From assembly GCA_964565125.1 (NCBI GenBank), contig CAZMCX010000004.1, positions 1 to 22,711 of the forward strand: DNA of 22,711 nt, given 5' to 3'. Below, one piece after another: positions 4,259-22,518 of the stretch. The notes under the pieces were generated by a model. It was not told the DNA's origin and searched no databases. It saw nothing but the letters and a program-made list of their open reading frames with translations. The stretch is from an uncultured archaeon. Lineage in GTDB: Archaea > Iainarchaeota > Iainarchaeia > Iainarchaeales > 0-14-0-20-30-16. Position 1 is the stretch's first letter. Every line of letters starts with the position of its first letter. Position numbers and translations under genes: made by a program.

Positions 4259-4993
4259 TTATATTAAACTAGTTCTTTGCAAATATGCTAAAACACCATC
4301 TTTTACTTTTCCATAAGGGATTTGCTTTGACAACAAAGGCTTTAAATCCCGGTTATACTGGCTCTCAGAAGTTAACTCTAGTTTTGTTTTATGTATTTTC
4401 TTTTTTACACAGGCCACATCTAATTCAATAATACTTTTGTAGAAAAAAACATCATATAAGTCTCGGCCTTTATTTCTGTCAAACAAAGTAGAAACTTTTT
4501 CTGCAAATCTCTCTTCAAGAGACATTGTTTTTACTAAACAAGACGGAATATCTACAAAATCCGATACCAAACTCAAATATTCTGGCTCTTTTTCTAAACC
4601 TTGCCTGTAACCTGCATCAATTCTTATGGAATTCATTGAATCTCTTCTACCCGAATACAAAGGTCCTTTAAACATTAGTGTCAAAGTATAAGCATTCTCA
4701 AAAATCTCTTCTTTCTTTATTTCATAAGAAATACCATAATCCCCATATCCCTTGATTACTTCATTTATTTGCTCCTTAAAGGCTTGTGGGCTCTTTAAAT
4801 AAAAATCTAAATCTTCAGAAAACCGATTTAAACCATTAAAGAATCTAAAAGATGTCCCACCTTTAAAAATAGCATCGTCATAAACATTATAATAAAGATA
4901 TAAAAACACTTTAAGCAAATATTCTTTTTCTGCTTGCCACAGATTTAATTTATGTTTTCTTGCATAGTTTTTTAGCTCTGTTACCGAAATCAC
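4259..4993 (-). CDS. abiEii: AbiEii/DUF1814-family nucleotidyltransferase toxin (type IV toxin-antitoxin)
   Basis: Pol-beta NTase signature FKGGTSFRFFNGLNRFSEDLDF near the N-terminus; 244 aa. The GTG start at 4993 directly abuts the TAG (4996-4994) of the upstream AbiEi-like gene. Confidence 0.75.
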   Translation of the reverse strand: MISVTELKNYARKHKLNLWQAEKEYLLKVFLYLYYNVYDDAIFKGGTSFRFFNGLNRFSEDLDFYLKSPQAFKEQINEVIKGYGDYGISYEIKKEEIFENAYTLTLMFKGPLYSGRRDSMNSIRIDAGYRQGLEKEPEYLSLVSDFVDIPSCLVKTMSLEERFAEKVSTLFDRNKGRDLYDVFFYKSIIELDVACVKKKIHKTKLELTSESQYNRDLKPLLSKQIPYGKVKDGVLAYLQRTSLI

Positions 4994-5584
4994 CTATATC
5001 AACCCTACAACATCTAATTTTTCTTTTATTTCTTTATATTTCTTTTTTGAAGGAATCCTTTTTAAGTAAACCCTAAAGGCAGATTTACTTAATTTTTCAC
5101 CGTTAATACATACTTTAAGTGTATCCAATGTGATTAAATTAAACCATAATAAATCAAATATTGTTTTCTCTTTTGTAGCAATTGGAAATCCTATATCCTT
5201 ATATCCCAAAAATAAGTTACTATCTATATAATGTAGATCTATTTTATCTATAGATCGCCTACGTTTTGAAGTAACTAAGTGTATATTCATAGGCACTTGC
5301 TCAGTAAATCCATAATAAGAAAATGCAGTCCACAAAGAAACATAAGATGGTGCAAACACATCAGTATAAACTTTAAAATCATTCTTTACTGCTGTATCAA
5401 TTACATATGTTCCTTTCTTTAAAGCAGTGGTATGCCCTTTCTCTAACAAACTTTTTGTTAAGTAATAAGCGGTATTAATAGACATATCTCTTACTTTTCT
5501 TAAATCAGATACTTTAAATACTACTTTATTTTTAGATAAAAGTTTCTCTAAAACATCTGCTTCCAACTTACTTAATGATTTCAT
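4994..5584 (-). CDS. abiEi: AbiEi-like antitoxin/transcriptional regulator (winged-HTH N-terminus)
   Basis: 196-aa ORF immediately upstream of and abutting the AbiEii-like gene. The N-terminal segment (LSKLEADVLEKLLSKNKVVFKVSDLRKV...NTAYYLTKSLLEKGHTTALKKGTYVI) looks like the AbiEi wHTH. Assignment rests on family resemblance and synteny. Confidence 0.65.
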   Translation of the reverse strand: MKSLSKLEADVLEKLLSKNKVVFKVSDLRKVRDMSINTAYYLTKSLLEKGHTTALKKGTYVIDTAVKNDFKVYTDVFAPSYVSLWTAFSYYGFTEQVPMNIHLVTSKRRRSIDKIDLHYIDSNLFLGYKDIGFPIATKEKTIFDLLWFNLITLDTLKVCINGEKLSKSAFRVYLKRIPSKKKYKEIKEKLDVVGLI

Positions 5585-5662: not shown

Positions 5663-5866
5663 TTACATCTTATCTAGTATTTCTTTATTTTTTATTCCAT
5701 ATAATTTAGCAAGTTTTTCTTTTCCATTGGGAAGTGCTAACATTCGCTCTTTCCAAGCATAATGTTTCTCAAATATTGCATTTATAAATCTTGTATGCTG
5801 TTTTTTCCATTTTGTAGGGTTTTCCCTTACATAGGTTGCCCAACGAACAATAAAATCATCAGTCAT
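5663..5866 (-). CDS. Hypothetical 67-aa protein, translationally coupled to the upstream nucleotidyltransferase
   Basis: ATG 5866-5864 overlaps the TGA 5865-5863 of the upstream gene (ATGA). Trp/Lys-rich, and I recognise no motif. Confidence 0.5.
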   Translation of the reverse strand: MTDDFIVRWATYVRENPTKWKKQHTRFINAIFEKHYAWKERMLALPNGKEKLAKLYGIKNKEILDKM

Positions 5867-6414
5867 AGCCTATACCTTCTTATTAACCCTTTATATTTGT
5901 TAATTTCTTGTTCATTAACTAAATTTGGATAAACCAGCCTTATATGTTGTGCATCTTCTAAATCTTTTTTGGATTTCAACAGCCCTTCTTTAAAGGCAAT
6001 ACAAACATTAACTGAAGAAAACCATACATTCAATCCAGTCAAGGCATATCTTTGTCTATTTTCTATTTGAATTTCATCTAATTTATCTTTTGCAAATTTT
6101 AGTTCCATATTTGGCAAAAACTTTCCCTTATAAATATATCTTAGTGATAGATTTTCCTTTAAATAATCATTATATATTTCTTCTAGAGTTCCTGGTTGCA
6201 TACTAGAAAAGCCAGCCTTTTTTAGTTCCTCATGGAATAACTTATATTTTTCAAGGGGTAACTGTTCTATAATTATATCCACATCTTCTGTTCCTCTTGT
6301 TCTTCCTGAAGCAATTGCAAAGAAACCAGACACCACAATATACTTTGCATGTTTCTCAACAATAGAACAAAATTTCAACACAAAATCATCAAGAATATTC
6401 CTATCTGCAATCAT
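5863..6414 (-). CDS. Pol-beta superfamily nucleotidyltransferase, minimal NTase fold plus C-terminal helical region (resembles archaeal DUF2204-like proteins)
   Basis: The signature VVSGFFAIASGRTRGTEDVDIII fits [GS]-x(9-13)-D-h-D. 183 aa. A TATA-like element lies about 40 nt upstream. Confidence 0.6.
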   Translation of the reverse strand: MIADRNILDDFVLKFCSIVEKHAKYIVVSGFFAIASGRTRGTEDVDIIIEQLPLEKYKLFHEELKKAGFSSMQPGTLEEIYNDYLKENLSLRYIYKGKFLPNMELKFAKDKLDEIQIENRQRYALTGLNVWFSSVNVCIAFKEGLLKSKKDLEDAQHIRLVYPNLVNEQEINKYKGLIRRYRL

Positions 6415-6481: not shown

Positions 6482-7161
6482 CTATTCTTGCTTGTGGTAT
6501 TCCTCAAGTAAATCAAGCCATAACCGATCCATTTTTTTATAATACTTAAGTGATTTCATTATTTGCCTGTCAATTTGAAAAACTTGTCGTCTTTCAGCAG
6601 ATACCTGGCGCCCCCAATGCCCATTTGGATAAAATGTATATCTTACGCCGCCATGTTCAAAAGTCAGAGGTTCATTTCCAGAAAAAGTTCTTGTCAAAGC
6701 GTCTATTAAATAACGATACTCTCTAAGTCTGGATCTACTTGATATCAAATATTGTAAAGAAGAAGTGCCAATAAATTGCATACATCTGTTAAAAGTTCTT
6801 TTTTTTCCCAAGATGCTTTGGATATTTGATTTAATTTCCCTAACCTCGCGCGTTCTGCATCCAAACCCCGCAGCACTTTTGTAACGCCAGTTTTATCTCT
6901 TATCTTTACATAATCTTTTTGGTATTTTCTGTGATTTCGGAACTCAATAACCCTGTGCTCTATTTCTTCCACAACATAAGGCAATCCCTCTTTCTTTACT
7001 TGTCTTGCACGTTGGTTATTTAGTTCAACCCAGCCACAATCAGGCACAGTAAGCTTTTCTTTTCATCCTGCCACAATTCCCTGATCTTTTGCTACTTTCA
7101 TAGCCTCTCGCCGGTTTCTAAAAGTAGTAATCATTTGCCTAACTATATTTGGTCTCGCCAT
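6482..7161 (-). pseudogene. Interrupted gene of unknown function: three collinear segments separated by an in-frame TGA and a -1 frame change. Either a pseudogene or a recoded gene.
   Basis: ATG at 7161 gives MARPNIVRQMITTFRNRREAMKVAKDQGIVAG, then TGA (7065-7063). The same frame continues KEKLTVPDCGW...SWEKKE. The 109-aa ORF (track start is only a TTG) lies in the -1 frame and overlaps at an A8 run. Local G+C-rich runs (ctggcgcccccaatgccc, cctcgcgcgttctgc) look unlike the surrounding genes. Confidence 0.5.
6799..6806 (-). promoter_or_regulatory. A8 run containing an A_AAA_AAA slippery heptamer in the zero frame (candidate -1 frameshift site or simple homopolymer indel)
   Basis: The zero frame reads UGG GAA AAA AAA GAA. 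A -1 slip gives ...AAA AAA AGA ACU UUU, which is exactly the downstream 109-aa frame (KKRTFNRCM...). Confidence 0.4.
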
Positions 7162-7179: not shown

Positions 7180-9141
7180 TTACTTTTTCGTTAATACTTT
7201 TAACTCTTTATCCGTTTCTTCTTGCACCTTTGCTATCAGATCCTTTCTAAATTCTGGCTTAAACAAGTGGGCATAAAGCTTGTGTGATTTAAGGTACTCT
7301 TCAACAGGCAAAACTTGCTTTGGTTTGTAAGTTATTTTGTATTTCCCGTTCTCTATTTCATACAAAGGCCAGAAGTTTGTCTCTGTTGCAAGCCTAGCAA
7401 CATCATAAGTCTTAAAGCTTGGGAACTTCCACCCATAATTACAAGGCATCAGAACGCTCAAGAATTTTGGGCCTTCATAACTAAAGGCTTTCTTTATTTT
7501 ATAGATAAAATCATCCAAATATGCTGGGTTTGCTTGTGCAGCATAAGGTATATTATGCGCTGCCACAATAGGCATTATGTCTTTTCTTTTCTGGGCTTTT
7601 CCAGAGCTAACTGTCCCCGCAGGAGTAGTAGTTGTACTTGCCAAGTAAGGAGTTGATCCACTTCTTTGGCCGCCCGTGTTCGAGTAGGCTGCATTGTCAT
7701 ATAGCACATACAAAATATCGTGTCCTCTTTCAAGCATTCCTGACAAAGCTTGTAAACCTATGTCAACACTATTCATATTCAAACTTATTCGTCCATCTTT
7801 TTCAATAATTAATATATGGTTCTTTTTTAATTCAGGACAAAAAACCTTTCCGTTATATTTATATGAAGAAATATTTTTTCGTCTGAGATTTGCTAACATA
7901 GTTGGTTTATAATTGCTTGCAGAAATAGAATATTCTAATCTTCCTTTTCTTTTATTTTCATCAAGATGAACTCTATAGCCTAATTTTAATGCAATTTCTA
8001 TAAAATCATTTTTCAATTTTTCTGAGATTGTACTATACCTATAAATCTTGGAGTTTTTGTAATCATCTATGTGCCCATCGCCCAGGATTAAAGAATCAAA
8101 TAAAAACTTAAGTTGTTTAGGGGGCAAGTTTTTGAATTCTTTTGGTATAAATTTGTCTTTGGCTTTCCCAAACTGTTTTAAATAACTCCATAACTGTTGA
8201 TTACTAATAATAAACCTATCTTTACTATACCAAAAATTAAAAGGCAATTTTGATAAACAAGCCTTTATTTTATCCACATTTTTTTTATTAGTTTGAGCTA
8301 TATAAACACCATATTTTTCTCTTTTAATAGATCTCTGCGATATATGCCCCTCAGAAATCCAATACCCAAAAAATTCCAACCAATTAGCCATTAATATTTT
8401 TTTAAACGGTTTTTTGTTAGCACTAATCTTATGATAAGAAACAGACGGAACTTCAAAATAGTTTTTATTCTTCCCCGCCCAGTTCAGGTTTCCAGTAATA
8501 ATATTAATCTTATCGCTTCGGCCATAATCAAGTAAACTATTTGCCTTAATAATATCCACTTTTTTTGTAAATTTATTATAAACAGGAACATTATGATTTA
8601 AAGAAACATCAAAATGAACAAAATTGTGATTTACTTTAACTATTAAATTATTATAATCAACGATATGCATTTTGATAACTGGAACAGGCTCTATATTCAA
8701 AGTTACAGGATTTACTGAAAATATTTTGTCCCCAATTTTTAAATCTTCTACATTTTTTAGTCCTTCTTCAGTCAATATTTTTGTTTGTGGAACATAACAA
8801 CCACCATCACCTGCAAAAACAACGAACTTGTACTTCTTTTTCAACTCTCCACGCTTTTGCCTTGCTACATACGCCCTCTCTACCCCCGCAAGGGTTGATG
8901 CGGAGTTTTCAAAGGCATTATGTATACACGAAACCCCAAAGCTTGTGTGTGGCCAAATTGTACTAGTAACTTCCAAGCACCCGGTAGCAATAGATACCAC
9001 AGGTTCATAGCCATCAGGCACATTGCCCAAAACAGTTCTAACTATTGGAGGTATAAAGCACCCTGAACAGGTCCTATGCCCTGGACCAAAACCCTCTTTT
9101 CCTTTTTCCCAAATTTTCTGTAAATCATATTTTTCGGCCAT
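7180..9141 (-). CDS. porB: 2-oxoacid (pyruvate-type):ferredoxin oxidoreductase beta subunit (ThDP-binding), interrupted by an intein
   Basis: Extein motifs GHRTCSGC, VVFAGDGG...SVDIGLQALSG, YDNAAYSNTGGQRSGSTP. Last gene of a gamma-delta-alpha-beta operon. The track start is TTG 9159. ATG 9141 is preceded by AAAGTGATTTTT. Extein length is about 310 aa once the 343-aa insert is removed. Confidence 0.9.
   Translation of the reverse strand: MAEKYDLQKIWEKGKEGFGPGHRTCSGCFIPPIVRTVLGNVPDGYEPVVSIATGCLEVTSTIWPHTSFGVSCIHNAFENSASTLAGVERAYVARQKRGELKKKYKFVVFAGDGGCYVPQTKILTEEGLKNVEDLKIGDKIFSVNPVTLNIEPVPVIKMHIVDYNNLIVKVNHNFVHFDVSLNHNVPVYNKFTKKVDIIKANSLLDYGRSDKINIITGNLNWAGKNKNYFEVPSVSYHKISANKKPFKKILMANWLEFFGYWISEGHISQRSIKREKYGVYIAQTNKKNVDKIKACLSKLPFNFWYSKDRFIISNQQLWSYLKQFGKAKDKFIPKEFKNLPPKQLKFLFDSLILGDGHIDDYKNSKIYRYSTISEKLKNDFIEIALKLGYRVHLDENKRKGRLEYSISASNYKPTMLANLRRKNISSYKYNGKVFCPELKKNHILIIEKDGRISLNMNSVDIGLQALSGMLERGHDILYVLYDNAAYSNTGGQRSGSTPYLASTTTTPAGTVSSGKAQKRKDIMPIVAAHNIPYAAQANPAYLDDFIYKIKKAFSYEGPKFLSVLMPCNYGWKFPSFKTYDVARLATETNFWPLYEIENGKYKITYKPKQVLPVEEYLKSHKLYAHLFKPEFRKDLIAKVQEETDKELKVLTKK
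7771..8799 (-). mobile_element. Intein with LAGLIDADG homing-endonuclease domain (343 aa) inside the beta subunit
   Basis: Starts with Cys (TGT 8799-8797) right after GDGG. Ends ...SLNMN (AAT 7773-7771), followed by Ser +1 (AGT 7770-7768). Contains SLNH (block-B-like), LEFFGYWISEGHI and LFDSLILGDGHI (two LAGLIDADG motifs) and VFCPELKKNHILII (block-F-like). Confidence 0.85.
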
Positions 9142-9155
9142 AAAAATCACTTTAT

Positions 9156-10295
9156 TCAATTCTTCAAGTCTTTCCTAAGCCCATAGAACTGGAACTTCTT
9201 TTGCTTTCCTTTCAAGAACTTTTTAACTAGGTCTTTGGCTTCTTCTATTCCAAAGTCTCTTCCGCCAATTCCATAAACAACATTATAAAACTCTTTTCCC
9301 ATGCCTTGGAACTCCAAGCCCATAGGCCCAAACTCCGCGCCGTGGCTTATTGCCCTGTCTAAAACAATCACTTTTTTCCCTTTTAGTCCAGCCCTAAGTT
9401 CAGTGTAAGGAAACGGCCTATAAACTCTTGGCCTCAAGCACCCAACCTTCTTTCCATTTTTTCTCAATTCCTGACAAGCAAGTTCAATTGCTTGATAAGA
9501 AGACCCCATTGATACAAAAACTGTATTTGCGTCTTTTAATCCAAAAGACTCATAAAGGCCATATCCTCTTTTTGAGATCTTTTCAAATCCTTTTTGTATT
9601 TTAAGTATTGACTTAGAAGATTCTGCTAAATCTTTCCATTGCCGTTCTCTTACCTCAATATTAGAATCCATTAGAGCAACATTTCCAAAAGAGATTTTGG
9701 AATCTAACATATTCGCCCATTTTAGCTTTTTGCCAACAAAATCCTTTGCCTGTTTAGTAGACAAAGTATCAATCACCTGCTCTCCGTGAGTAGTATAGAA
9801 TCCATCCATCATAACCATTACAGGGATCTTTATATCCTCTGTAATTTTTACTGCCATCAAAGTGGTATCATAAACTTCCTGCACATCTTTACAATAAATC
9901 TGGACCCAACCTGAGTCTCTTGCCAAAAAACTATCTGAATAATCACAATGCAAAAGAAGAGGTGCACTAAGTCCTCTATTTCCCACAACCATTGTCATTG
10001 GTAATCTTAATCCCGCAGCAATGTAGATTACTTCGATCATATAAGCTAGGCCTTGTGACGCGGTAGCAGTAAACACTCTGGCACCGGCAGCACTTGCACC
10101 AATACATGCAGACATTGCACTGTGCTCTGATTCCGCAAGAATATTTTCAGTAGTAACTTTTCCGTCAGCAACATACTTTGAGAAAGTTTCGATAATTTGT
10201 GTTTGAGGAGTAATAGGATACGACACACAAACATCTGGGTTTATCTGCATCATTGCGTATGAAACAGCATAGTTTCCGTTTATTAAAGTCCTCAT
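9156..10295 (-). CDS. porA: 2-oxoacid:ferredoxin oxidoreductase alpha subunit
   Basis: The N-terminus LINGNYAVSYAMMQINPDVCVSYPITPQT is typical of PorA/VorA/KorA. 379 aa. Operon position is between delta and beta. Confidence 0.9.
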   Translation of the reverse strand: MRTLINGNYAVSYAMMQINPDVCVSYPITPQTQIIETFSKYVADGKVTTENILAESEHSAMSACIGASAAGARVFTATASQGLAYMIEVIYIAAGLRLPMTMVVGNRGLSAPLLLHCDYSDSFLARDSGWVQIYCKDVQEVYDTTLMAVKITEDIKIPVMVMMDGFYTTHGEQVIDTLSTKQAKDFVGKKLKWANMLDSKISFGNVALMDSNIEVRERQWKDLAESSKSILKIQKGFEKISKRGYGLYESFGLKDANTVFVSMGSSYQAIELACQELRKNGKKVGCLRPRVYRPFPYTELRAGLKGKKVIVLDRAISHGAEFGPMGLEFQGMGKEFYNVVYGIGGRDFGIEEAKDLVKKFLKGKQKKFQFYGLRKDLKN

Positions 10296-11356: not shown

Positions 11357-12004
11357 TTATTCTTTTCTAACAATTGTTATTGTCCAGCCCCTCTTACCAT
11401 AACCCTTGTAATATTCCTCAATTTTAAAGAACTGCGATAAAAGATTAGTCATATTTAATCTATCTATCATCTGGGTATAAGGTTTAGTTTGATCTTTCTT
11501 TTCTTTTATTTTTTTGTCATCATCATAATCCGCAGTATTTGACGAATACACTAAACCATATCCACCTTTCTCTAAAATGTCAGACATTTTTTCTACAGCA
11601 TATGGGGCTATTGAAGAATCAAACTGATTCAAAAAAGATCCCGCAACCAAACCATGGAATTTCTCCTCTGGCTCCCATTCTAAAAAACAGACGTTGTAGA
11701 ATTTTGCTTTAGGGCTATTTTCTTGGGCATATTTTATCATTTCTTTAGATACATCAATACAGGACACATTAAAGTCATACTTAAAGTGTTCAGTAAGTAT
11801 GAATGAGTTTAATCCAACTCCGCACCCTAAGTCTGCAATTCTTGCTCCTTTTCCAAAACTAGAGTTGACCTTTTCAGCAAAAGGCTTTATTACCTTGTAT
11901 TGATTATCTACGAAATTTACCCATCTTGAGTTATAGTCATCGGCTAACAAATCATAGTACTCCACCAATTGTTTTTGGATCTTACTTGCTTGTTTCCCAC
12001 GCAT
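11357..12004 (-). CDS. Class I SAM-dependent methyltransferase
   Basis: Motif I IADLGCGVGLNS. 215 aa. A TATA-like CCCTTTATAAA (12026-12036) lies 22-32 nt upstream of the ATG, which suggests a leaderless mRNA. Confidence 0.8.
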   Translation of the reverse strand: MRGKQASKIQKQLVEYYDLLADDYNSRWVNFVDNQYKVIKPFAEKVNSSFGKGARIADLGCGVGLNSFILTEHFKYDFNVSCIDVSKEMIKYAQENSPKAKFYNVCFLEWEPEEKFHGLVAGSFLNQFDSSIAPYAVEKMSDILEKGGYGLVYSSNTADYDDDKKIKEKKDQTKPYTQMIDRLNMTNLLSQFFKIEEYYKGYGKRGWTITIVRKE

Positions 12005-12025
12005 GTTTATAATATAATTTCAACA

Positions 12026-12036
12026 TTTATAAAGGG
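12026..12036 (-). promoter_or_regulatory. TATA-like element for the methyltransferase gene
   Basis: Minus sense CCCTTTATAAA, located 22-32 nt upstream of ATG 12004. Confidence 0.4.
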
Positions 12037-12084
12037 CGTGGTTTTATGTATAGAAATTAGAAAAATTTGCACACAAAAACCAAA

Positions 12085-12113
12085 AAAATAATTCTAGAAA
12101 AAGAAAAATAAGT
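12085..12113 (-). terminator. Oligo-U tracts (archaeal-type terminator) after the candidate ncRNA
   Basis: The minus sense immediately after the terminal helix reads ACUUAUUUUUCUUUUUCUAGAAUUAUUUUUUUGGUUUUU. Confidence 0.4.
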
Positions 12114-12310
12114 GGCAGGTAAAACGGTATACACAAGAATATCTGGGACTACGGATATATACTCCCGGAATTGACCGCGCAAAAGACAGCAGATAAAATC
12201 TGCCCCAACATACAGCAAAGCACATGGCATGAAGCCAGAACGCTTGTTTGCATATCCTCACTGCGCCGTTTGCAAATCTCACGGAGAGATTTATAGAATA
12301 CCTACCGTAT
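12105..12310 (-). ncRNA. Unassigned structured RNA candidate (~200 nt), in the position downstream of 23S where a 5S rRNA would be expected. Its identity is not established.
   Basis: A G+C-rich island sits in AT-rich intergenic DNA.
- The ends pair: GGTAGGT (RC of 12302-12308) with ACCTGCC (RC of 12114-12120).
- Internal perfect hairpins: AAATCTC/GAGATTT and GCAGAT/ATCTGC.
- The helix GCGCAG/TTGCGC and the terminal helix each contain a G.U pair only when read on the minus strand.
- A TATA box lies upstream and oligo-U tracts lie downstream.
- The overlapping 62-aa ORF is Cys/Phe/Arg-rich and looks spurious. Confidence 0.4.
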
Positions 12311-12326
12311 AATTATATATAATACA

Positions 12327-12339
12327 TATTTATAAAACT
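12327..12339 (-). promoter_or_regulatory. TATA box (minus sense AGTTTTATAAATA) about 25-30 nt upstream of the candidate ncRNA 5' end
   Basis: The spacing to the first base of the terminal helix (about 12308) fits archaeal TATA-to-TSS distance. Confidence 0.4.
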
Positions 12340-12422
12340 TTGCCACGCATACTGGCCTAAAACAACAGTAGTCAGATTTGTATTAAGAAACCAAAAAATA
12401 ACTAAAAAAAAGAATAACTTTT

Positions 12423-12446
12423 TAGTTAGCATAGGCAAGTAAAGTG
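12423..12446. repeat. 3' arm of the 23S rRNA processing stem (perfect 24-nt inverted repeat with 15773-15796)
   Basis: Plus-strand tagttagcataggcaagtaaagtg is the exact reverse complement of cactttacttgcctatgctaacta at 15773-15796. Confidence 0.8.
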
Positions 12447-12497
12447 CTAAAGATTGCTAAAAGTTTTTAGCTAAGATTCTAAACTGAATCTCTATTT

Positions 12498-12533
12498 GTG
12501 TAGTCTTTGATTTTGTGTGTAGTCTTTGATTTT
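12498..12533. repeat. Tandem direct repeat, 2 x 17 nt (gtgtagtctttgatttt) separated by gt, abutting the 23S 3' end
   Basis: 12498-12514 and 12517-12533 are identical. A related gtgtagtct occurs inside the 23S intron (13636-13644). Confidence 0.8.
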
Positions 12534-15500
12534 TAAAGGTCCTCTTATGCTATTAGTACTGGTCAGCTGAATATCTCGCCGAAGCTCGATACTTACACTT
12601 CCAGCCTATCAACCCAGTCTTCTACTGGCGCATTAGTCTGTCCGAAGACAGAGTGACGATCTATTTTTAGGGGGGACTTCAAGCTTAGATGCTTTCAGCT
12701 TTTATTCCTTACGGCGTGGCTACCCAGCGCTGCCCTCCCGGACAACTGGTAGACTAGAGGCCGCGACCTTTTGTTCCTTTCGTACTAGAAAGATCTTCCC
12801 TTCAGATCATCAACAGTCCCAACAGATAGTAAACAAACTGGCTCGCACCGTTCTTAACCCAGCTCACGTACGGCTTTAATGAGTTAACCCCTCCACCCTT
12901 GGCTGCTTATGCACAGCCAGGATGCCATGAGCCGACAACGAGGTAGCAAACCGCGGGGTCGATATGTACTCTTGCCCGCGACAACCCAGTTACCCCCAGG
13001 GTAGCTTCACTATCAGACCAGACTGCCACCAAAGCAGTACTGACGATCATTAAGCCCTTCTTTCGAATCTGCATTCCTTGTTTTGCAGAACACAGTCAAG
13101 CCTGCTTTTGCCCTTACACTCGACAGGATGTTCCTAACACCCTTGAGCAGACCTTTGGGTTCCCCTGATACCTTTTCAGGGGAGTACCGCCCCAGCCAAA
13201 CCACCAACTCTGCAGGTGTCCCCCTTTCGGGGTGAGTCTTAGAATTTCTGAAGGTTAGTGTCCCATTGACGTCTCCACAGTTCCTGACGAAACTGCTTCG
13301 AAGACTACTAACTACGCTGCACATCAAAAAGTCTAAAACAGCAACAGATTGTGGTAAAGTTCCGTGGGGACTTCACCTCCCATTGAGACTCCGTGGCATA
13401 TTCACCACGCAGTGGGTTCGTCGAGTTATAGTTAGGGACAGTGGGAATCTCGTTATTCCATTAATGCAAGTCGGCATTAAACCGACAAGGTATTACGCTC
13501 ATACTTGTTACTTCGCCCCCAAATAGGGTTACTTACCATCATATGTGATGGCGAGCTACTATTTCTAATAGCTTCTATATGTCACCATATAGATCGGACT
13601 ATATCTTCATAGCAAAGTTGTTTTGCTATGTTTGGCGTGTAGTCTCTGGGGATTCTTCTTTATTTCTAAAGAAGCCTTTCCTGCTGATTGTCTCTCATGA
13701 ACAGATTTTTAGGGTTCACTACCCTTTCACAAGAATAGTTGCCTACCATTCACTCAAAGAGAGTTTCCAGCATATAGCCAAATTTTATTAAGGCTACGAT
13801 TATAACCTTAAGAGCCTCAGAGTTAGGCCCGCTCTTTACCAGCGCTTAGACCCCTTGAAAAGGGTTTTCACGTACTGGCAGTGAGCAGAAGTCGGCCCCT
13901 ATACTAATCTTTTCAGACTCGCAGGGACCTACGTTTTTGATAAACAGTCGGACTCCCCTTGTTAGTGCCACCTACAGTTTACACAACTGCAGGCACCCCT
14001 TATACCAAAGATGCGGGGCTATTTTGCCGAATTCCCTTAACTATATTCTCTCGATACGCCTTGGCCTTCTCAGCCAGGGGCACCTTTCCCGGTTCTCGGT
14101 ACGGTCTGATGGAATCCTTATGATCTTTCTTTTCATGGTTACCAGGTGTGAAGAACAGCTTTCGCCCCATCACCTCTTAAAGCCCTTCTCGTCATTATAA
14201 CTCTCCAAGCTTATATTAGGATTGGATATTCTGGGAAGAATACGTTCTCTAACCCAATAAGTCAAAAGATCATCTATTGTTGCCAAATTGTATCCACCAG
14301 GTACAGGAATATGAACCTGTTTCCCTTTCCCCCTACTCGTGTTACGATAGGGGTTAGGATCGACTAACCCTTAGCTGATGATCAGTGCTAAGGAACCCTA
14401 GCCCTTTCAGCGGAGAGGGTTCTCACCTCTCATAGCTATTACTACCGCTAGGATCAATATTCCATATAGGTCCACAAGAACTCACGCCCTTGCTTCTGTC
14501 CTATAAGAAAACCTTCTTACAAGATATTACATACAATGCAATCTGCATGGTATCGGTGGTCTGTTTTAGCCCCGTATATTTTTGGTGCCCTCACTCTCGG
14601 AAGGTGAGTTGTTACACACTCTTTAAATGATAGCTACTTCTGAGCTTACATTCCCTCTGTCTTAGAGTAAAGACGCCCTTTATTTGCACTTAACAGACAC
14701 TTTGGGACCTTAACCACGCGCAGGGTTGTTTCCCTTTCGGACCGGAAGCTTACCCCCCGGATCCCAACTTCAACCTTCTTAGACAAATGGCGATTCGGAG
14801 TTTAGCAAAAAAGCCGGGGATCTCTCCCCAATACTTTTTGATCAGTGCTCTACCCACCATTTCGTCTCAGGTCAAGCTAACCTTAGAGCTATTTCAGAAG
14901 GAGCCTGCTATCACCAAGTTCGCATAGATTATCGCTCCCACTCCCAGGTCACCTAAACAGTTAGTCTAGAACTAGAAACGGACCTCCACCCCTTTGTAAA
15001 AGGGTTTCATCCTGCCCAGGAGTAAATCACTTGGTTTCAGGTCTGGTATCTGTGACTAAAGACGGATTAGCATCCTTGTCCTCACTAAAAGTTGCGACAA
15101 CTCGGTTTCCCTACGCCTACGAGGTTAAACCCCTTAAGCTTGCCACAGACACAAATTCCCTAGCCCGTGCTTCGTGACGAACGACGTAACACTATACAGA
15201 GCGCTTCGTTACCTTAGGCGCTCTACCTTTCGTGCCGCGTCCACCTATTACCATTTGGTTTCAGGTGCTTTTAACTCCCTACCAAGGGTACTTTTCAACT
15301 TTCCCTCACGGTACTCGTTCGCTATCGGTCTTGGAAGAATGTTTAAGATTGGGGGTTGGTACCCCCCGTATTCATACGCAAATGCCAATGCGTATTACTC
15401 TCGGTTACTATCAGATCTTTCTCTTATATAACTAAGGGGCTATCACCCGCTATGGCGCTTCTTTCCAGAAGTCTTCGTCTTTAAGAGTTAAGACCCTAAC

Positions 15501-15772
15501 TAGACCACACCACATCTCTCTCTAATTTCTTAGAGAGATTCAGTTTGTCTTCTGCCCTTTTCCTTCGCCAGTACTGGGGGCATCGCGATTGCTTTCTTTT
15601 CCTGCAGGTACTAAGATGCTTCAATTCCCTGCGTCTCCTCCCCTTTCGGGGTAATTCGGGTATCTCTGGTTCTAAGGTTGCGTGCACCTCGCCAGAGCTT
15701 TTCGCAGCTTGCCACGCCCTTCTTCGGCTTCCAAGCCAAGTCATCCACCAAATGGTTTACTAGGACCCTTAA
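12533..15772 (-). rRNA. rrl: 23S (LSU) rRNA, archaeal, containing one ~305-nt intron
   Basis: Conserved LSU blocks read on the minus strand:
- 5' GGTGGATGACTTGGCTTGGAAGCCGAAGAAGGGCGTGGCAAGCTGCGAAAAGC
- CCGACTGTTTATCAAAAAC
- GCGTAATACCTTGTCGGTTTAATGCCGACTTGCATTAATGG
- a 3'-terminal GCTGACCAGTACTAATAGCATAAGAGG
Helix 1 pairs TTAAGGGTCC (15772-15763) with GGACCTTTAA (12542-12533). Ends are accurate to a few nt. Confidence 0.93.
13500..13804 (-). other. ORF-less intron in 23S rRNA domain IV, between the H69 hairpin and the AGCG...CCUUG segment (about E. coli U1931/A1932)
   Basis: Upstream exon ends ...AGCGGGCCTAACTCTGAGGCTCTTAAGGT. Downstream exon resumes (A)GCGTAATACCTTGTCGG. Joining them restores the universally conserved ...CCUAAGGUAGCGxAAUxCCUUGUCGG block. 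The intervening AT-rich ~305 nt has no LSU counterpart and accounts for the excess rRNA length. Boundaries are accurate to about 3 nt. Confidence 0.7.
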
Positions 15773-15796
15773 CACTTTACTTGCCTATGCTAACTA
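15773..15796. repeat. 5' arm of the 23S rRNA processing stem
   Basis: Exact inverted repeat of 12423-12446. Directly abuts helix 1 of 23S. Confidence 0.8.
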
Positions 15797-15884
15797 TATG
15801 TGATATAAATATCACGAGTTACGCCAGAACAAAAAAACTTGTTCTAACTACTCATAACTCTCGGAAAGCCCATATTTTTACATA

Positions 15885-16049
15885 TGGACTCAGCGGGAAT
15901 TGAACCCGCAGCCTCGGCCTTACCCGCAGCCTTCTTAAGAAAAGATCTCAGGAATCCATGCCATTGAAAATGGCATTTTTTCCGTAAACGCTTTTTCCTA
16001 AAAAGGGTTTGTTGCAAGGGCCGCGCTCTCCCAGTTGAGCTATGAGCCC
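15885..16049 (-). tRNA. tRNA-Ala (anticodon UGC) with a 92-nt intron at the canonical 37/38 position (intron 15921-16012); CCA not encoded
   Basis: Exons fold as a cloverleaf:
- acceptor GGGCTCA/TGAGTCC with the G3:U70 alanine identity pair
- D arm GCTC-AACTGGGA-GAGC
- anticodon arm CGGCC-CTTGCAA-GGCCG
- T arm GCGGG-TTCAATT-CCCGC
- discriminator A
It lies between 16S and 23S, as is usual in archaeal rRNA operons. Confidence 0.9.
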
Positions 16050-16078
16050 GTAGACTGTTATTAAACAATTACGAAAAT
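16050..16078. repeat. 3' arm of the 16S rRNA processing stem
   Basis: gtagactgttatt (16050-16062) and acgaaaat (16071-16078) are reverse complements of aataacagtctac (17643-17655) and attttcgt (17628-17635). That gives two helices separated by an internal loop. Confidence 0.75.
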
Positions 16079-16081
16079 TCA

Positions 16082-17566
16082 GAAGGAGGTGATCCGTCCG
16101 CAGGTTCCCCTACGGACACCTTGTTACAACTTAGCCCTCCTCACGAAACAAGAAATCGAACTACCATTGAAGTAGCCCTCATTCTAGCCTCATTCGGGTG
16201 GCTTGATGGGCGGTGTGTGTAAGAAGCAGGGACACATTCACCGCGTGATAGTGACACGCGATTACTAGGGATTCCAGCTTCATGAGAATGAGTTACAATC
16301 CTCAATCCGAACCTAGACCGAGTTTCACGGATTACCTCCCTCTCTCGAGTTCGATACCCATTGTCTCGGCCAATGTATGCCGCGTGTTGCCCAGAAGATT
16401 CGGGTCATACAGACCTATCGTCGCCCACCCCTTCCTCTAGATTGCTCCAGCTGTCCTTTCATAGTGCGCCCTTCCGAAGAAAGACTAGCAAAAAAAAGCA
16501 TGGGTCTCGCCCGTTGCCTAAGTTAATAGGACACCTCACGGCACGAGCTGACGATGGCCATACAGCACCTCTCAGCGTGTCAGGTAACCCCATCAGAGTG
16601 ACCATCATCCTGCTGTCGCCCCTGGTAAGTTTCTTTGGCGTTGTATCCGATTAAACCGCAGCATCCACCCCTTGTGGTGCTTCCCCGCCAATTCCTTTAA
16701 GTTTCAGCCTTGCGACTATACTCCTCAGGCAGCAGACTTAACGGCTTCCCTACGGCACCCCGTAAATCCAAGATTAACGGGACACCTAGTCTGCAACGTT
16801 TACGGCTGGGACTAACCGGGTATCTAATCCGGGTCGCTCCCCCAGCTTTCATCCCTCACCGTCAGGTCCGTTCTCGTAAGTCGCCTTCGCTACTGGTGGT
16901 CCTCTATGGATTATCACATTTCACCGCTACCCATAAAATACCACTTACGTCTCCCGGCCTCTAGTCAAGTAGTATTCTCTGCAATTCAACAAGTTAAGCT
17001 TGTTAATTTCACAAAGAACACACTAAACAGGCTACGGATGTTTTAGGCCCAATATCCACGAGTACCACTTGTGGAGCACGTATTACCGCGGCGGCTGGCA
17101 CGTGTCTTTCCCTCCACTTATTCGCCAAGTTATTTACACTTGACAAAAGCTAGTAAAACTAGCACTAGGAATCCCCCTATCGCGCTTTCGCGCATTGTAG
17201 AATTTTCGCGCCTGCTGCACCCCGTAGGGCTAGGGGCCTTTTCTCAGTCCCCTTCTCCGGGCTCCCCCTTGCAGGGCCCGTACGGATCTCAGGCTTGGTG
17301 GGCCATTACCCCGCCAACAACCTAATCCGGCGCAGACCCATCCTAAGGCGCCAGCAAGAAAAGGCTTGCTGACTTTAATAAAAAGAGCATCCCAGCTTCA
17401 ATTTACTATGAGGTATTACTCTCAGTTTCCCGAGCTTAACCTCTCCTCAGGGTAGGTTGTCCACGTGTTACTGAGCCGTTCGCCGAAGGTATCCATATAC
17501 CTTCTAGACTTGCATGGCTTAGTCGAATTCCTATAGCAGTACTCTCCAGCGGGATCAGCTGGAATC
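16082..17566 (-). rRNA. rrs: 16S (SSU) rRNA, archaeal
   Basis: 5' ATTCCAGCTGATCCCGCTGGAG. Archaeal-type GTGCCAGCCGCCGCGGTAATAC (RC of about 17079-17100). 3' AAGTTGTAACAAGGTGTCCGTAGGGGAACCTGCGGACGGATCACCTCCT. Length about 1485 nt, with no insertion apparent. Confidence 0.95.
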
Positions 17567-17627
17567 ATATCGCAATATTAGTCTAAAAACATTCAGAAAT
17601 TGGTTTAATTATACACACATTATTTTG

Positions 17628-17655
17628 ATTTTCGTTTTTACCAATAACAGTCTAC
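17628..17655. repeat. 5' arm of the 16S rRNA processing stem
   Basis: Complementary to 16050-16078 (13 bp + internal loop + 8 bp). Confidence 0.75.
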
Positions 17656-17744
17656 ATCCTACCTAAAAAACCTTAGGTAATCATGGGATGGTTCTCAAAA
17701 ATTGAGAAAACCAACAAAAAAGCACAGCAAAAATCTTCTGCTAT

Positions 17745-17790
17745 GTAAATTTTTATAAAATATAAAGAGCCCCAAAAGCTTTATAAAGGC
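17745..17790 (-). promoter_or_regulatory. rRNA operon promoter region with two tandem TATA-like elements
   Basis: The minus sense reads CGAAAGCCTTTATAAAGC (TATA = RC of 17778-17789), followed by CTTTATATTTTATAAAAA (RC of about 17750-17767). This is about 180-220 nt upstream of the 16S 5' end. Confidence 0.45.
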
Positions 17791-17873
17791 TTTCGGCTTA
17801 TTCATTATGAAGGCTAAAGTGTCAAGGCTATTTTTTAGTTCATTATTTCAGTTAAAAAGTAAACAAAATTTAA

Positions 17874-18920
17874 TTATTCCGCAACAACCCTATTTCTTCC
17901 CTGCTCTTTTGCCTTGTATAATCTTTCATCCGCCAAAGACACAAGAAGATCTGGACTTACATCCTCAGTTTCATTAACACTTGCAACCCCGATACTAATA
18001 GTTACCTTGCCTACAGAAAACTCAGAATTATCAATTGCGAACCTAAGCCTTTCACCTACTACCTTTGCACCTTCTTTGTCACAATCTAACAGAACAATAA
18101 ATTCTTCTCCACCCCAACGACAAAGATAATCATGATTTCTTCCGGGCCTGCCCCTCAAACTACTAAACAAAATCTTTGCCAACTTTCTAAGAACTACATC
18201 CCCATTAAGATGGCCATAGGTATCGTTGATATTCTTGAAATGGTCTATATCTATTATTAATAAAGAGAACACGGCTTTTGTTTTTTTGTAATCTTCCAGT
18301 TTGTCATTAAAGTTTATTTCAAACGATCTTCGGATCGAAACCTTTGTCAAAGGATCCAATTGTTTGTCTATTACCGAAGCTATAAACCGCCCAATAGATG
18401 CAAAGTAAATTGCTGAGATCAAAAGCATTGTCTTTATGTCTCCTTCATACTTTAATTTTTTTAGTAAAAGATTCTTGCCTTTTATTATCACAATCCCAAT
18501 AACAGAATCATTGAATACCAACGGAACCAACAAAGTGCTTTTATCAAAAACAGAATCAATTAGAACTTTAGTATACCTAAAACTATGTGGAACCATGTTA
18601 TAAGCATAAATTATATTTTTCTTGTCTTTTGGATAAAAATATATTATCTCTTTGTCTTCAATTGATTTTAGAATATAATAATTCTCTGGAGTTATCTGGT
18701 TCAGATCTATCTCCTCAAGATGACTTTCTGTTTTTGTCCTATTTGCCAAACACACAAGGGTGTCTTTATCAAGTAAATAAACTCCCGCGGTTTCCACATT
18801 TTTTAGAGTATCCATTATTAACTCCAAAACCCTACTTAAATTTGTTTCATATTTAGAACTTAAGAGTGTACTCATGGTATAAAGTTCTTTTGCAAGGGCC
18901 CAGCCCCAAACTTTTTGCAT
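17874..18920 (-). CDS. GAF-like sensor + GGDEF-domain diguanylate cyclase, with active-site and I-site motifs intact
   Basis: IIDIDHFKNINDTYGHLNGDVVL, RNHD-YLCRW-GGEEF (GGEEF at nt 18113-18099, RxxD five residues upstream), and LYKAKEQGRNRV. The N-terminal ~160 aa are GAF-like. The track start is GTG 18929. ATG 18920 is preceded by AGGTG, which overlaps the transporter TAG. Confidence 0.9.
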   Translation of the reverse strand: MQKVWGWALAKELYTMSTLLSSKYETNLSRVLELIMDTLKNVETAGVYLLDKDTLVCLANRTKTESHLEEIDLNQITPENYYILKSIEDKEIIYFYPKDKKNIIYAYNMVPHSFRYTKVLIDSVFDKSTLLVPLVFNDSVIGIVIIKGKNLLLKKLKYEGDIKTMLLISAIYFASIGRFIASVIDKQLDPLTKVSIRRSFEINFNDKLEDYKKTKAVFSLLIIDIDHFKNINDTYGHLNGDVVLRKLAKILFSSLRGRPGRNHDYLCRWGGEEFIVLLDCDKEGAKVVGERLRFAIDNSEFSVGKVTISIGVASVNETEDVSPDLLVSLADERLYKAKEQGRNRVVAE

Positions 18921-18929
18921 TGATGACAC

Positions 18930-20214: not shown

Positions 20215-21966
20215 ATGATTCCAGATTTTCTTAAGAAACATTATCTATTAACCACTTTCTTTTTTGTTTTTATATTTTTACCATACCTAATCTTAGAGAT
20301 TTATAGCTATGACGGCATATTTAGTCTAATTACAAGATTTATCTGTTTTTCATCGCTCTTGGTATTTTGCATAGTTTTGTCTAAATATTTAGAACATAAA
20401 AACAGCATAATAAAATATTCTTTGTTTTTCATATTCTTTCTATATTATATCCTTACCTATCTATTTGCTGCTTATTTAGCATTTTCTAGAACCCCTTTTA
20501 AGATAGTGGCCAATATTGAATTGGGATTGAACTCAATAACACATGGGCTGGTGGGAATATTAGGATATTTTAATATCGCACTTGTCTTTGTTGCAGTAAT
20601 TCTTTTGTTCTTACTTACTAGCCACTTCTTTAGAAAAGTTACAAAAAACATTCACAAAGAATTTGGCGGAAAAATTGCAGGGTTATTACTTCTGTTAACT
20701 GTTGTATTCCTAGTAACTGGAAATGACCTAGTAGTTTCTTCTGTAATAGACGCATATCAAGACTACGAAGCCACTAAAAACAACCCAGTTGTATTTCCAG
20801 ATTACAATTTTTCTACAACTTCAAATGAGAACATATTTTTATTACAACTAGAATCCTTAAACTCTGCAATTGTAACTAAAGAATACAGCCCCAACTTCTT
20901 AGAAATCGCAAAGGATGGAGTTTTATTAAAAAAATATCATAATAACAGCATAAGAACAAACCTGGCCCAAGACAATATTTTATGCGGAATAAATGGAAAC
21001 TTCAAAACCCCATTTTCGCACCACCCCGAAGATATCAAAAACACCTGCCTACCACAGTTGCTAAAAGACAGCGGCTACAAAACTTTATTTTTTAGAGCAG
21101 ATATTTTAGAATTCACAAATACCGGGAACTACATGAAAGCAATCGGTTTTGAGGAAATACATCATGATGATATAATGCAAGAAGGCGATCTGAAATATCC
21201 ATGGGGCTATGACGATGCTTTGTTTTACAAAAGAACTTTTGAATACTTAAATAAATACTACAAAGACACAAACAACCTCTTTATTTACCTAGAAGTTTCT
21301 TCACATCACATCCCATTTTCTGAAAAAGAGGAATATGGAAATCATGTTTTTTTAGAACCACAAAATTTCACTGAAAAATACATAAACTCTGCTTATGTTC
21401 AAGACATGGCTCTAAAAACATTTTATGACGATTTTAAAAAATACACTAACGGAAACACCCACTTAATTATCCAAGGAGACCACAGCTGGCCAATAGGGAT
21501 CCATGGAAATGTAAACAACGAAAAAGGATATTATGAAGATAACTTTCTTACCTCTCTTATTTTCATAGGAAAGAAAGGTCAAGGATACCTAACAAATTAT
21601 ATAACTGAAGAAAGATTTAGCGAAGTTGACACTGTTCCTACAATCTTTTCAATCCTCAATAAAGAACAATATGAAAACTCTTTTGAGCCCGCACTTAAAG
21701 GCCAAGAACCCACAAATTATGAAAAATGCCACATGCTTATCCAGCCACATATGGACATGTCAGCATCAATTGTGAAATACCCTGATAAATATGTTTACCT
21801 TTTAAAATTAAAAGAAATACATTACTTTAATCTAGCAAACGATCCCAATGAAATGGATGAAACAGTTCTAGCCAAGGATATAGGCCTAAAAGATTTCCTT
21901 ATGACTTACGGTTGTGAGAGATACAAGGAATATTATTCTAAAAACTTAATTGAAACTGAAGAATAA
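20215..21966 (+). CDS. LtaS/sulfatase-like (alkaline-phosphatase superfamily) membrane phosphotransferase
   Basis: About 5 N-terminal TM segments, then an extracytoplasmic domain with LQLESLNS, SIRTN (candidate nucleophile Thr), SSHHIPF and QGDHSWP motifs. SD-like GAGG lies upstream of the ATG. Confidence 0.75.
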   Translation: MIPDFLKKHYLLTTFFFVFIFLPYLILEIYSYDGIFSLITRFICFSSLLVFCIVLSKYLEHKNSIIKYSLFFIFFLYYILTYLFAAYLAFSRTPFKIVANIELGLNSITHGLVGILGYFNIALVFVAVILLFLLTSHFFRKVTKNIHKEFGGKIAGLLLLLTVVFLVTGNDLVVSSVIDAYQDYEATKNNPVVFPDYNFSTTSNENIFLLQLESLNSAIVTKEYSPNFLEIAKDGVLLKKYHNNSIRTNLAQDNILCGINGNFKTPFSHHPEDIKNTCLPQLLKDSGYKTLFFRADILEFTNTGNYMKAIGFEEIHHDDIMQEGDLKYPWGYDDALFYKRTFEYLNKYYKDTNNLFIYLEVSSHHIPFSEKEEYGNHVFLEPQNFTEKYINSAYVQDMALKTFYDDFKKYTNGNTHLIIQGDHSWPIGIHGNVNNEKGYYEDNFLTSLIFIGKKGQGYLTNYITEERFSEVDTVPTIFSILNKEQYENSFEPALKGQEPTNYEKCHMLIQPHMDMSASIVKYPDKYVYLLKLKEIHYFNLANDPNEMDETVLAKDIGLKDFLMTYGCERYKEYYSKNLIETEE

Positions 21967-21990: not shown

Positions 21991-22017
21991 AGCAGAATTA
22001 TTTTGCTTTTATTTTTT
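21991..22017 (+). terminator. Hairpin plus T-run after the LtaS-like gene
   Basis: agcagaa-tta-ttttgct (7 bp including one G.U), followed by tttatttttt. Confidence 0.3.
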
Positions 22018-22518
22018 ATAGTCACATAAAAACACTTTTGCATTTTCATAAGTTATTACTATTCTGTGCAAGGTATCTATTAACTCTTTAGGTTCTTTAT
22101 AATATTTCTTAAATGTTTTTATACCTCCTTTTTCTATCAGTTTCATCGCAAATGCCAAAGTTATTAAATCCTTCTTGTTATATGTCCAAATAAGTTTATA
22201 TCTTAATTTTTCAGACAATGTTACCCCACTTAATACTGGAGAAACATTTAAATTAAAAAACCAACAAATCCCCAAAAAAATGTTAGTTTTAAAACGATTC
22301 TAAACTCTTAAAGGATGTTTAATTATTTTTCCAACACGCCGAGGATATAAAAATATTACTCCTAACTCTTCTAATAAGAAAATTAATTTGGAGGGGGTTT
22401 TGTAATTTCTGTTAAATAGATTACTATATTTTTCATCTATTTCTTTTGATTCCAATATTAGTTTTTCTTGATATTTAGAGGGATATGACTTTATTTTTGA
22501 AACTATTTTTTCTGGCAA
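22009..22518 (-). pseudogene. Degenerate ORF: two same-frame fragments (72 aa and 88 aa) separated by an in-frame TAG, neither with an ATG start
   Basis: The starts at 22518 and 22275 are both TTG and in the same frame. TAG lies at 22302-22300. I recognise no motif. Confidence 0.3.

Follow-up and report, generated by a model that had tools for sequence, protein, structure and literature searches.

A 22,711-nucleotide stretch of an uncultured archaeon of the Iainarchaeota (GenBank assembly GCA_964565125.1, contig CAZMCX010000004.1, positions 1 to 22,711; hereafter the window) encodes, beside its ribosomal RNA (rRNA) operon, a protein that joins a GAF-like sensor to a GGDEF domain, the hallmark of the diguanylate cyclases that make cyclic di-GMP (c-di-GMP). 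We consider it quite likely, judging from the sequence and its relatives, that this gene truly belongs to the chromosome of a DPANN archaeon and specifies an anciently acquired, functional, product-inhibited and sensor-regulated diguanylate cyclase. GAF-GGDEF cyclases are common in Bacteria and are an ordinary enzyme type; the novelty lies in the host, a member of an unexpected domain of life to which the gene can be assigned securely, and not in the enzyme type or the mechanism. An earlier interpretation made without database searches (the sequence-only reading) had placed the gene at exactly the coordinates that we find for the 348-amino-acid frame from the ATG. The maximal open reading frame (ORF) spans 17874-18929 on the minus strand and would give 351 amino acids if a GTG start were used; we prefer the ATG at 18920 because close homologues share the 348-residue length.

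The catalytic half of the protein is a full GGDEF domain. Pfam PF00990 matches residues 191-347 with E=4e-39 (134.4 bits, cut-off 23.8), covering profile positions 3-161 of 161, and NCBIfam TIGR00254 matches with 1.1e-43 (148.8 bits, cut-off 37.4). Among sequences in the PDB, 47 distinct ones match, nearly all of them named diguanylate cyclases or GGDEF proteins; the best match has an E-value of 7.7e-27, and 3ign and 5euh lie at 1e-26 to 1e-27. In the translation, the metal- and guanine-binding segment DIDHFKNINDTYGHLNGD holds D224, D226, N232 and D241. The RNHD motif (R261-D264) is followed by the five residues YLCRW and then by GGEEF (G270-F274), and the phosphate-binding stretch KAKEQGRN supplies K338 and R342. 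The sequence-only reading had claimed a complete catalytic domain with the Asn/Asp pair that reads guanine, the GGEEF active site, and an RxxD inhibitory site exactly five residues upstream of it, and all of these are borne out by the full-domain matches and the motif residues. An RxxD at this distance from GG(D/E)EF is found in many, although not all, GGDEF members. The spacing of the catalytic residues equals that of PleD, in which the equivalent positions are D327, N335, D344, R359xxD362, G368GEEF, K442 and R446.

These residues are strongly conserved. GGEEF is invariant in all archaeal orthologues and in a 30-sequence GGDEF alignment. D224, N232, D241, K338 and R342 are invariant in six archaeal sequences, and the first four of these are also invariant in the 30-protein alignment, which includes bacterial GGDEFs. 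All catalytic residues are kept in the six aligned orthologues, which share 59-99% identity. Of the motif residues listed above, the RxxD arginine is the only one that varies among the six archaeal sequences. Furthermore, D224, D226, N232, D241, R268, GGEEF, K338 and R342 are unchanged across two archaeal clades, the one containing the window protein (clade A) and a second one described below (clade B). In an AlphaFold2 (AF2) model of the full-length protein, the predicted local distance difference test (pLDDT) score is 73 overall and mostly 82-96 for residues 200-348; both AF2 models reported here are of monomers only. Foldseek superimposes the GGDEF part on the c-di-GMP-bound crystal structures 3ign, 5euh and 4zmm with target-normalised template modelling (TM) scores of 0.86-0.89 and root-mean-square deviations (rmsd) of 1.6-2.0 Å. 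According to Hallberg et al. (2016), a study cited in PMC10249747, the Hypr GGDEFs that make cyclic GMP-AMP (cGAMP) carry a Ser at the position of PleD D344. At this position the archaeal protein has Asp241, invariant in all orthologues. Because of Asn232 and Asp241, we predict guanine specificity, with c-di-GMP rather than cGAMP as the product.

The sensor is recognisable in its predicted structure only. Residues 1-189 match no Pfam family above cut-off, the best match within the GAF clan (PF01590, PF13185, PF13492) being to GAF_2 with E=0.068 and 13.8 bits against a cut-off of 28.6 (one of three orthologues). An AF2 model of the same residues has a pLDDT of 78 and a predicted TM score of 0.78. 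When this model was compared with the PDB by Foldseek, all 50 matches listed were GAF domains or GAF-containing proteins; the best of those listed has E=2e-5, and target-normalised TM scores reach 0.66. As modelled, the N-terminal domain is a GAF fold. The GAF-like sensor claimed earlier thus stands for the fold but not for the sequence, which stays below the family cut-off. Both AF2 models place a helix at residues 162-187/188, leading from the sensor to the GGDEF domain, and D189 and T192 of the DxLT turn at its end are invariant across 30 GGDEF proteins. In the models, then, a signalling helix connects the GAF-fold sensor to the GGDEF domain. Cys58 of the sensor is not conserved among orthologues, and there is no conserved Cys for bilin attachment; because the single GAF-fold domain lacks one, the cyclase is not a phytochrome. 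An exhaustive search of 1.84 billion representative proteins with the sensor profile returned only its own cluster and two further proteins, P0241 (E=1e-7) and P0242 (E=1.5e-5).

The gene lies on an archaeal contig. Rfam identifies the 16S gene at 16084-17565 (SSU_rRNA_archaea, 1366 bits) and the 23S gene at 12533-15772 (LSU_rRNA_archaea, 2492 bits). Between them lies a tRNA-Ala(UGC) gene at 15885-16049 (52 bits) with an intron of ~94 nt after the anticodon loop, which ARAGORN missed and Rfam recovered. A group I intron interrupts the 23S gene at 13575-13835 on the minus strand (94.9 bits). These results confirm what the sequence-only reading had said of the contig, namely that it is archaeal and carries introns in tRNA-Ala and 23S. 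Rfam found no 5S rRNA gene accompanying the 16S-tRNA-23S operon, neither at 12004-12533 nor anywhere else in the 22.7-kb contig. The window also encodes an archaeal/eukaryotic-type YchF-related GTPase (PF08438; NF007171, 552 bits).

The arrangement around the cyclase recurs in independent assemblies. We refer to related loci as L001 to L015. The order of an SNF transporter gene, the GGDEF gene and archaeal 16S was found in at least ten further contigs from NCBI, ENA and JGI. The orthologues fall into four clusters at 99, 89, 64 and 59% identity to the window protein, drawn from NCBI, ENA, JGI and Logan records of different samples, and the next matches beyond them are to the GGDEF domain only, at ~45-50% identity. 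Archaeal 16S lies directly downstream of the GGDEF gene in the window, L001, L002, L003, L008, L009, L011 and L013, and SNF precedes it in L001, L002 and L008, where the contigs reach upstream. In L006 one unrelated methyltransferase gene lies between the GGDEF gene and archaeal 16S; L005 has the same SNF-GGDEF-methyltransferase order, and its contig ends before any rRNA. The most informative relative is L011, a 63-kb contig (JAQTTP010000005.1, named in SPAdes NODE style) from the GTDB species representative 'Candidatus ainarchaeum sp. STB_43', a name that probably stands for Candidatus Iainarchaeum (Iainarchaeota, DPANN/Nanobdellati) with its spelling cut short. Its cyclase is 93% identical to that of the window, with an archaeal rRNA operon likewise downstream. 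Over 12.9 kb it is colinear with window positions 20750-7162, on both flanks of the rRNA genes, through SNF, GGDEF, 16S, tRNA, 23S, methyltransferase and pyruvate:ferredoxin oxidoreductase genes; the only difference is two mobile insertions that L011 does not have. The spacer between the cyclase and 16S aligns without a break to L011, L009, L008 and L001. In L001, whose protein is the 59% orthologue, the flank far from the rRNA encodes a family B DNA polymerase and a type II methionine aminopeptidase that scores above the curated cut-off of TIGR00501.

Divergence and composition point in the same direction. Identities to the window for 16S and for the protein are 99.3 and 93% in L011, 97.7 and 89% in L009, 93.8 and 59% in L001, and 92.0 (partial 16S) and 64% in L006. 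The ratio of nonsynonymous to synonymous substitution rates (dN/dS) of the cyclase is 0.050 against L011 and 0.042 against L009, with the sensor half as low as the catalytic half. Its GC content of 0.342, and of 0.304 at third codon positions (GC3), is inside the range of the neighbouring genes. The gene has been inherited vertically under strong purifying selection in a clade of ~92-99% 16S identity, roughly genus-to-family depth. The closest other GGDEF domains are bacterial, at ≤50% identity, and in a neighbour-joining tree of 123 GGDEF domains the nearest neighbours are spread over many phyla at 45-50%. Full amelioration of the composition, and bacterial GGDEFs as the nearest relatives at this distance, lead us to infer that an ancestor most likely acquired the gene from a bacterium long ago. 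A scan of metagenome contigs with a six-sequence family alignment, for which the back-translated patterns are universal GGDEF motifs, yielded 80 loci, all GGDEF-domain-only (≤49%), and added no family members.

Conserved rRNA genes are known chimera hot-spots. A bacterial GGDEF gene misjoined to an archaeal rRNA operon, by assembly or by binning, is nevertheless extremely unlikely to explain the locus. In its favour, rRNA operons do give misjoins; L013 shares SNF, GGDEF and 16S with the window, yet its 23S is ~65% identical and its downstream genes differ; and published censuses regard the c-di-GMP genes of archaeal metagenome-assembled genomes as potential contamination (bioRxiv 10.1101/2021.11.05.467447; PMC5847659). 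However, the junction sits in a unique spacer outside the rRNA genes and is reproduced in more than ten contigs whose proteins are 59-99% identical, L011 is colinear on both sides of the operon, and the non-rRNA flank of L001 carries its type II methionine aminopeptidase and family B polymerase. Protein divergence broadly follows 16S divergence, cyclase GC and GC3 match the neighbouring genes, and no bacterial protein is >50% identical over the GGDEF domain. Recurrence in independent NCBI, ENA and JGI assemblies, L011 colinearity, the L001 flank, divergence and composition together exclude chimerism or contamination of the bin, a concern that the sequence-only reading had itself raised about the rRNA/GGDEF junction.

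The two other proteins found with the sensor profile form a second, very divergent clade. P0241 (L014, 1338-2615) and P0242 (L015, 1524-2828) have the sensor and a GGDEF domain with an intact GGEEF, have lost RxxD, and carry an extra 30-45 residues at the N-terminus. Each gene is preceded by a divergently transcribed gene for a short triose-phosphate isomerase (216-217 amino acids) and followed by tRNA-Thr(CGU). The isomerases share 57% identity and match NF003302/PRK04302, the archaeal-type isomerase model, far better than they do bacterial-type models. The tRNA genes of L014 are 92 and 84 nt long, lengths that imply introns. A second clade with archaeal features thus shares the sensor+GGDEF architecture. 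Each protein is a singleton in 90% clusters, and a homologue search from P0241 returned the singleton only and did not enlarge clade B. A common origin of clades A and B is suggested by the shared sensor domain only.

The cyclase appears to be coupled to the transporter gene that precedes it. The SNF stop codon lies 9 nt before the cyclase ATG, with GGTG in between, and wherever an orthologous locus reaches far enough upstream (L001, L002, L004, L005, L008, L010, L011 and L013) the two genes are adjacent, 5-9 nt apart. Because of these short gaps, here and in the orthologues, the transporter and the cyclase probably form one operon. The nearest non-orthologous relatives of the transporter are 34-36% identical, and the few named ones are bacterial. 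Downstream of the cyclase, the spacer contains a terminator-like hairpin with a T-run at 17723-17745 and, also at the level of sequence patterns, A/T-rich TTTATA-type boxes; the terminator of the cyclase and the promoter of the rRNA operon probably both lie here. Scans for sigma-70 promoters gave background level only, as expected for an archaeon.

If the enzyme works like PleD, WspR, Dcsbis and IsPadC, two copies of the cyclase would pair through their linker helices. Ligand binding to the GAF fold would shift the helix register and bring together two GTP-loaded GGDEF half-sites, which would condense 2 GTP to 3',3'-c-di-GMP. The product could then bind the RxxD site and shut the enzyme off. 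Since the cyclase is so tightly coupled to a transporter gene, we speculate that signalling is tied to solute uptake, with the imported solute as the sensed ligand, or that the transporter is itself a target.

Several observations weigh against a working, product-inhibited cyclase of ancient bacterial origin. No EAL, HD-GYP or PilZ domain occurs among the window ORFs, as had been noted from the sequence, and no EAL or HD-GYP domain occurs in the called genes of L001-L015, nor a PilZ domain in the related loci scanned. At the Rfam gathering threshold there is no c-di-GMP-I or c-di-GMP-II riboswitch in the window or in 11 related loci (L001-L003, L005, L006, L008, L009, L011 and L013-L015). The c-di-GMP pathway is thus incomplete as far as seen in the window and the scanned loci, which represent a fraction of each genome. 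Additionally, none of the archaea examined has been found to contain c-di-GMP (2023 review PMC10249747; PMC8646023). Product inhibition does not appear to be universal in the family: RxxD is kept in five of six clade-A sequences, the most divergent orthologue, P0004, has KNLD instead, and the site is missing from P0241 and P0242. As to origin, the neighbour-joining tree of 123 GGDEF domains pinpointed no bacterial donor, nor did it place those of P0241 and P0242 with the window clade.

A rival explanation is a catalytically silent GGDEF domain that serves, as many degenerate bacterial GGDEF proteins do, as a scaffold or as a receptor for nucleotides or c-di-GMP, in an archaeon that makes no c-di-GMP. 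The window shows no partner of the phosphodiesterase, PilZ or riboswitch kind, c-di-GMP is undetected in the archaea studied (PMC10249747), and a WspR-like protein with an inactivated GGDEF has been described from an archaeal metagenome-assembled genome by Galperin et al. (PMC5847659). We find this explanation quite improbable, given that the full catalytic set from D224 to R342 is invariant in both archaeal clades and that dN/dS is ~0.05 in the catalytic half. GGDEFs that act as receptors or scaffolds have normally lost either the GGDEF motif itself or the residues for metal and substrate. A receptor role would also predict RxxD to be the better conserved element, yet in the archaeal family it is conserved less. 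A very improbable alternative is that the cyclase is active and its product is released or transferred to act on a bacterial partner or host, or is another nucleotide, rather than serving as an intracellular archaeal messenger. It would account for the lack of visible intracellular effectors in the window and for the genetic coupling to a membrane transporter, and the host falls within the DPANN group, whose members are often episymbionts. This account is purely speculative, though, and NSS transporters import amino acids and osmolytes rather than exporting nucleotides. Asp241 at the PleD D344 position speaks against Hypr-type cGAMP synthesis, and effectors may lie elsewhere, as only a fraction of each genome was inspected. 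A functional cyclase in the archaeal cell is the reading that we prefer. Rather unlikely is an extension of it in which native DPANN c-di-GMP signalling acts through effectors unrelated to PilZ, EAL and HD-GYP, for instance by directly controlling the NSS transporter or enzymes that modify the envelope, or in which the dinucleotide acts on a bacterial or archaeal partner cell. If true, c-di-GMP biology would reach into the third domain of life and gain a new output mechanism.

Features of the cyclase locus, with positions in the window.
Feature	Position	Strand	Description and basis
Cyclase gene	17874..18920	-	ATG at 18920, TAA 17874-17876; 348 amino acids; GAF-like sensor + GGDEF
Sensor core, residues ~28-153	18462..18839	-	GAF fold in AF2 model; sequence almost without relatives
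Linker helix, residues ~162-188, ending at DxLT turn D189-T192	18357..18437	-	AF2 secondary structure
GGDEF catalytic domain, residues 189-348	17877..18356	-	Pfam, PDB sequence matches, Foldseek
RxxD inhibitory (I) site RNHD, R261-D264	18129..18140	-	Sequence
GGEEF active-site motif, G270-F274	18099..18113	-	Sequence
NSS/SNF sodium-dependent transporter, 407 amino acids	18930..20153	-	Pfam SNF 2.9e-31; NCBIfam Na_transp
Spacer from cyclase stop to 16S, 308 nt	17566..17873	-	Hairpin + T-run, TTTATA-type boxes (pattern level)
rRNA operon, archaeal	12533..17565	-	Rfam: 16S, intron-bearing tRNA-Ala(UGC), 23S
Membrane-anchored sulfatase-superfamily protein	20215..21966	+	Pfam Sulfatase 2.1e-18; weak NCBIfam PRK03776 (glycerophosphotransferase)

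Outside the rRNA genes the window has a low GC content of ~31-37%, and the majority of its genes lie on the minus strand. The window appears to be the entire contig, since P0243, a member of the cyclase cluster, has 22,711 bp as its longest contig; the window proteins at 61-660 and 20215-21966 had no record that would extend it. The divergently transcribed sulfatase-superfamily gene is also found beside SNF in L005 and L008 and is absent in L001. The methyltransferase of L005 and L006 was considered as an orthologue of the one at window positions 11357-12004, a relation that would have tied both rRNA flanks together, and rejected, the BLASTP match (34% over 82 amino acids) being generic S-adenosylmethionine-binding similarity. 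The rRNA operons of relatives differ in their insertions. The tRNA-Ala intron varies in length among relatives, the gene measuring 108 nt in L009 and L011 but 177 nt in L001. A ~305-nt insertion in the window 23S (13500-13804) is absent from L011 (site 6910/6911 of L011), whose 16S is 99.3% identical. At the same 23S site L001, L002 and L003 have a ~740-nt insertion (15218-15956 in L001), within which a LAGLIDADG_1 ORF is called in L001 and L002. Because presence and size differ between the window, L011 and L001-L003, the 23S intron is mobile and variable in the lineage. L013 (ENA k141_31742, 72.8 kb, from 4453 onwards) has an SNF protein 100% identical to that of the window, a matching 16S, and a cyclase, P0249, in the same ≥90%-identity cluster as the window cyclase. 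Its 23S is a different archaeal one (~65% by blastn), and SNase and phosphoribosyl pyrophosphate synthetase genes lie downstream. It is likely that L013 contains a chimeric join in that assembly's spacer and that rRNA operons are prone to misassembly in these data.

Some other genes of the window deserve mention. The thiamine-diphosphate-binding subunit of pyruvate:ferredoxin oxidoreductase (7180-9159, minus strand) contains an intein with Hint and LAGLIDADG_3 domains at residues ~121-464; the 1033-nt insertion, at ~7768-8800, is missing from the otherwise colinear L011. An intein in an enzyme of central metabolism seems unusual. An AbiEii-family nucleotidyltransferase toxin gene lies at 4259-4993 on the minus strand (Pfam 1.5e-24), directly preceded by an unannotated ORF of 196 amino acids (4994-5584, minus strand). 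This ORF is probably the cognate antitoxin, giving a type IV toxin-antitoxin/abortive-infection pair in an archaeal genome. ORFs of 72-183 amino acids without a Pfam match (5863-6414, 6482-7047 and 22009-22518) could be lineage-specific.

c-di-GMP signalling has been described as bacterial, except for one Methanocella ORF (PMC5847659; bioRxiv 10.1101/2021.11.05.467447; PMC10086821; PMC10249747). The claim of the sequence-only reading that GGDEF genes are rare in archaea agrees with this literature, in which PMC5847659 gives a single case from a complete archaeal genome, PMC10086821 asks for confirmation and PMC10249747 states that c-di-GMP has never been found in archaea. Our literature search found no GGDEF genes reported in Iainarchaeota or other DPANN archaea beyond the cited Methanocella and Micrarchaeum papers. 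The L011 orthologue, MDD4983842.1, is already labelled 'GGDEF domain-containing protein' by NCBI. Galperin et al. treated bacterial-type regulators in archaeal metagenome contigs as possible contamination (PMC5847659), Galperin and Chou gave the same caution for HD-GYP, and Römling in 2022 wrote that the presence of GGDEF 'need[s] to be confirmed in archaeal contigs' (PMC10086821). This point of provenance, left open by the published censuses, is now confirmed for one lineage by rRNA linkage, independent assemblies, vertical inheritance and selection. The cyclase gene is a concrete candidate that can be cloned to ask if c-di-GMP is made by any archaeon, and its pairing with an NSS transporter gives a defined starting point to look for archaeal effectors. 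If the enzyme is active, it would represent a bacterial second-messenger enzyme domesticated in a genome-reduced archaeon.

Two archaeal precedents can be compared with this family. RCIX2274 (CAJ37382) of Methanocella arvoryzae, presumably of bacterial origin, is the sole GGDEF protein reported from any complete genome of an archaeon (PMC5847659; bioRxiv 10.1101/2021.11.05.467447). By its published description it is a REC-PAS-PocR-GGDEF-HD-GYP protein of a euryarchaeal methanogen, which sets it apart from the two-domain DPANN protein; unlike the single RCIX2274, the GAF-GGDEF proteins form a family of conserved orthologues whose gene neighbourhood is fixed. The WspR-like proteins of 'Candidatus Micrarchaeum acidiphilum', with REC and inactivated GGDEF domains, are likewise GGDEFs attributed to DPANN metagenome assemblies (PMC5847659). 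They are described as inactivated and their archaeal provenance has been questioned, whereas the window protein has an intact active site and linkage to the rRNA operon secures its provenance.

Among bacterial enzymes, PleD of Caulobacter crescentus (1w25, 2v0n) has a catalytic domain 34-36% identical over ~200 aligned columns and likewise carries RxxD five residues ahead of GGEEF; it is activated by phosphorylation of its REC domains, whereas the archaeal protein has a GAF-fold sensor and no receiver domain. The phytochrome-linked cyclase IsPadC (5llw/5llx/6et7) also combines a GAF-containing sensor, a long helical linker and a GGDEF domain, and it is among the top full-length structural matches as well as matching the sensor-only model. 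It has a PAS-GAF-PHY module with bilin, in contrast to the single GAF-fold domain here. The closest counterpart in architecture is Dcsbis (PA2771) of Pseudomonas aeruginosa (4zmu/4zmm), which at 341 amino acids, against 348 here, likewise has one N-terminal GAF fold, a helical linker and a C-terminal GGDEF domain. Its structure 4zmu is the best full-length Foldseek match (E=3e-16, 368 aligned columns), and the two GGDEF domains superimpose with a TM score of 0.89 and an rmsd of 1.6 Å. The proteins share 23% overall identity, and the archaeal one differs in a sensor that is not GAF by sequence, in its archaeal host and in its coupling to an NSS transporter.

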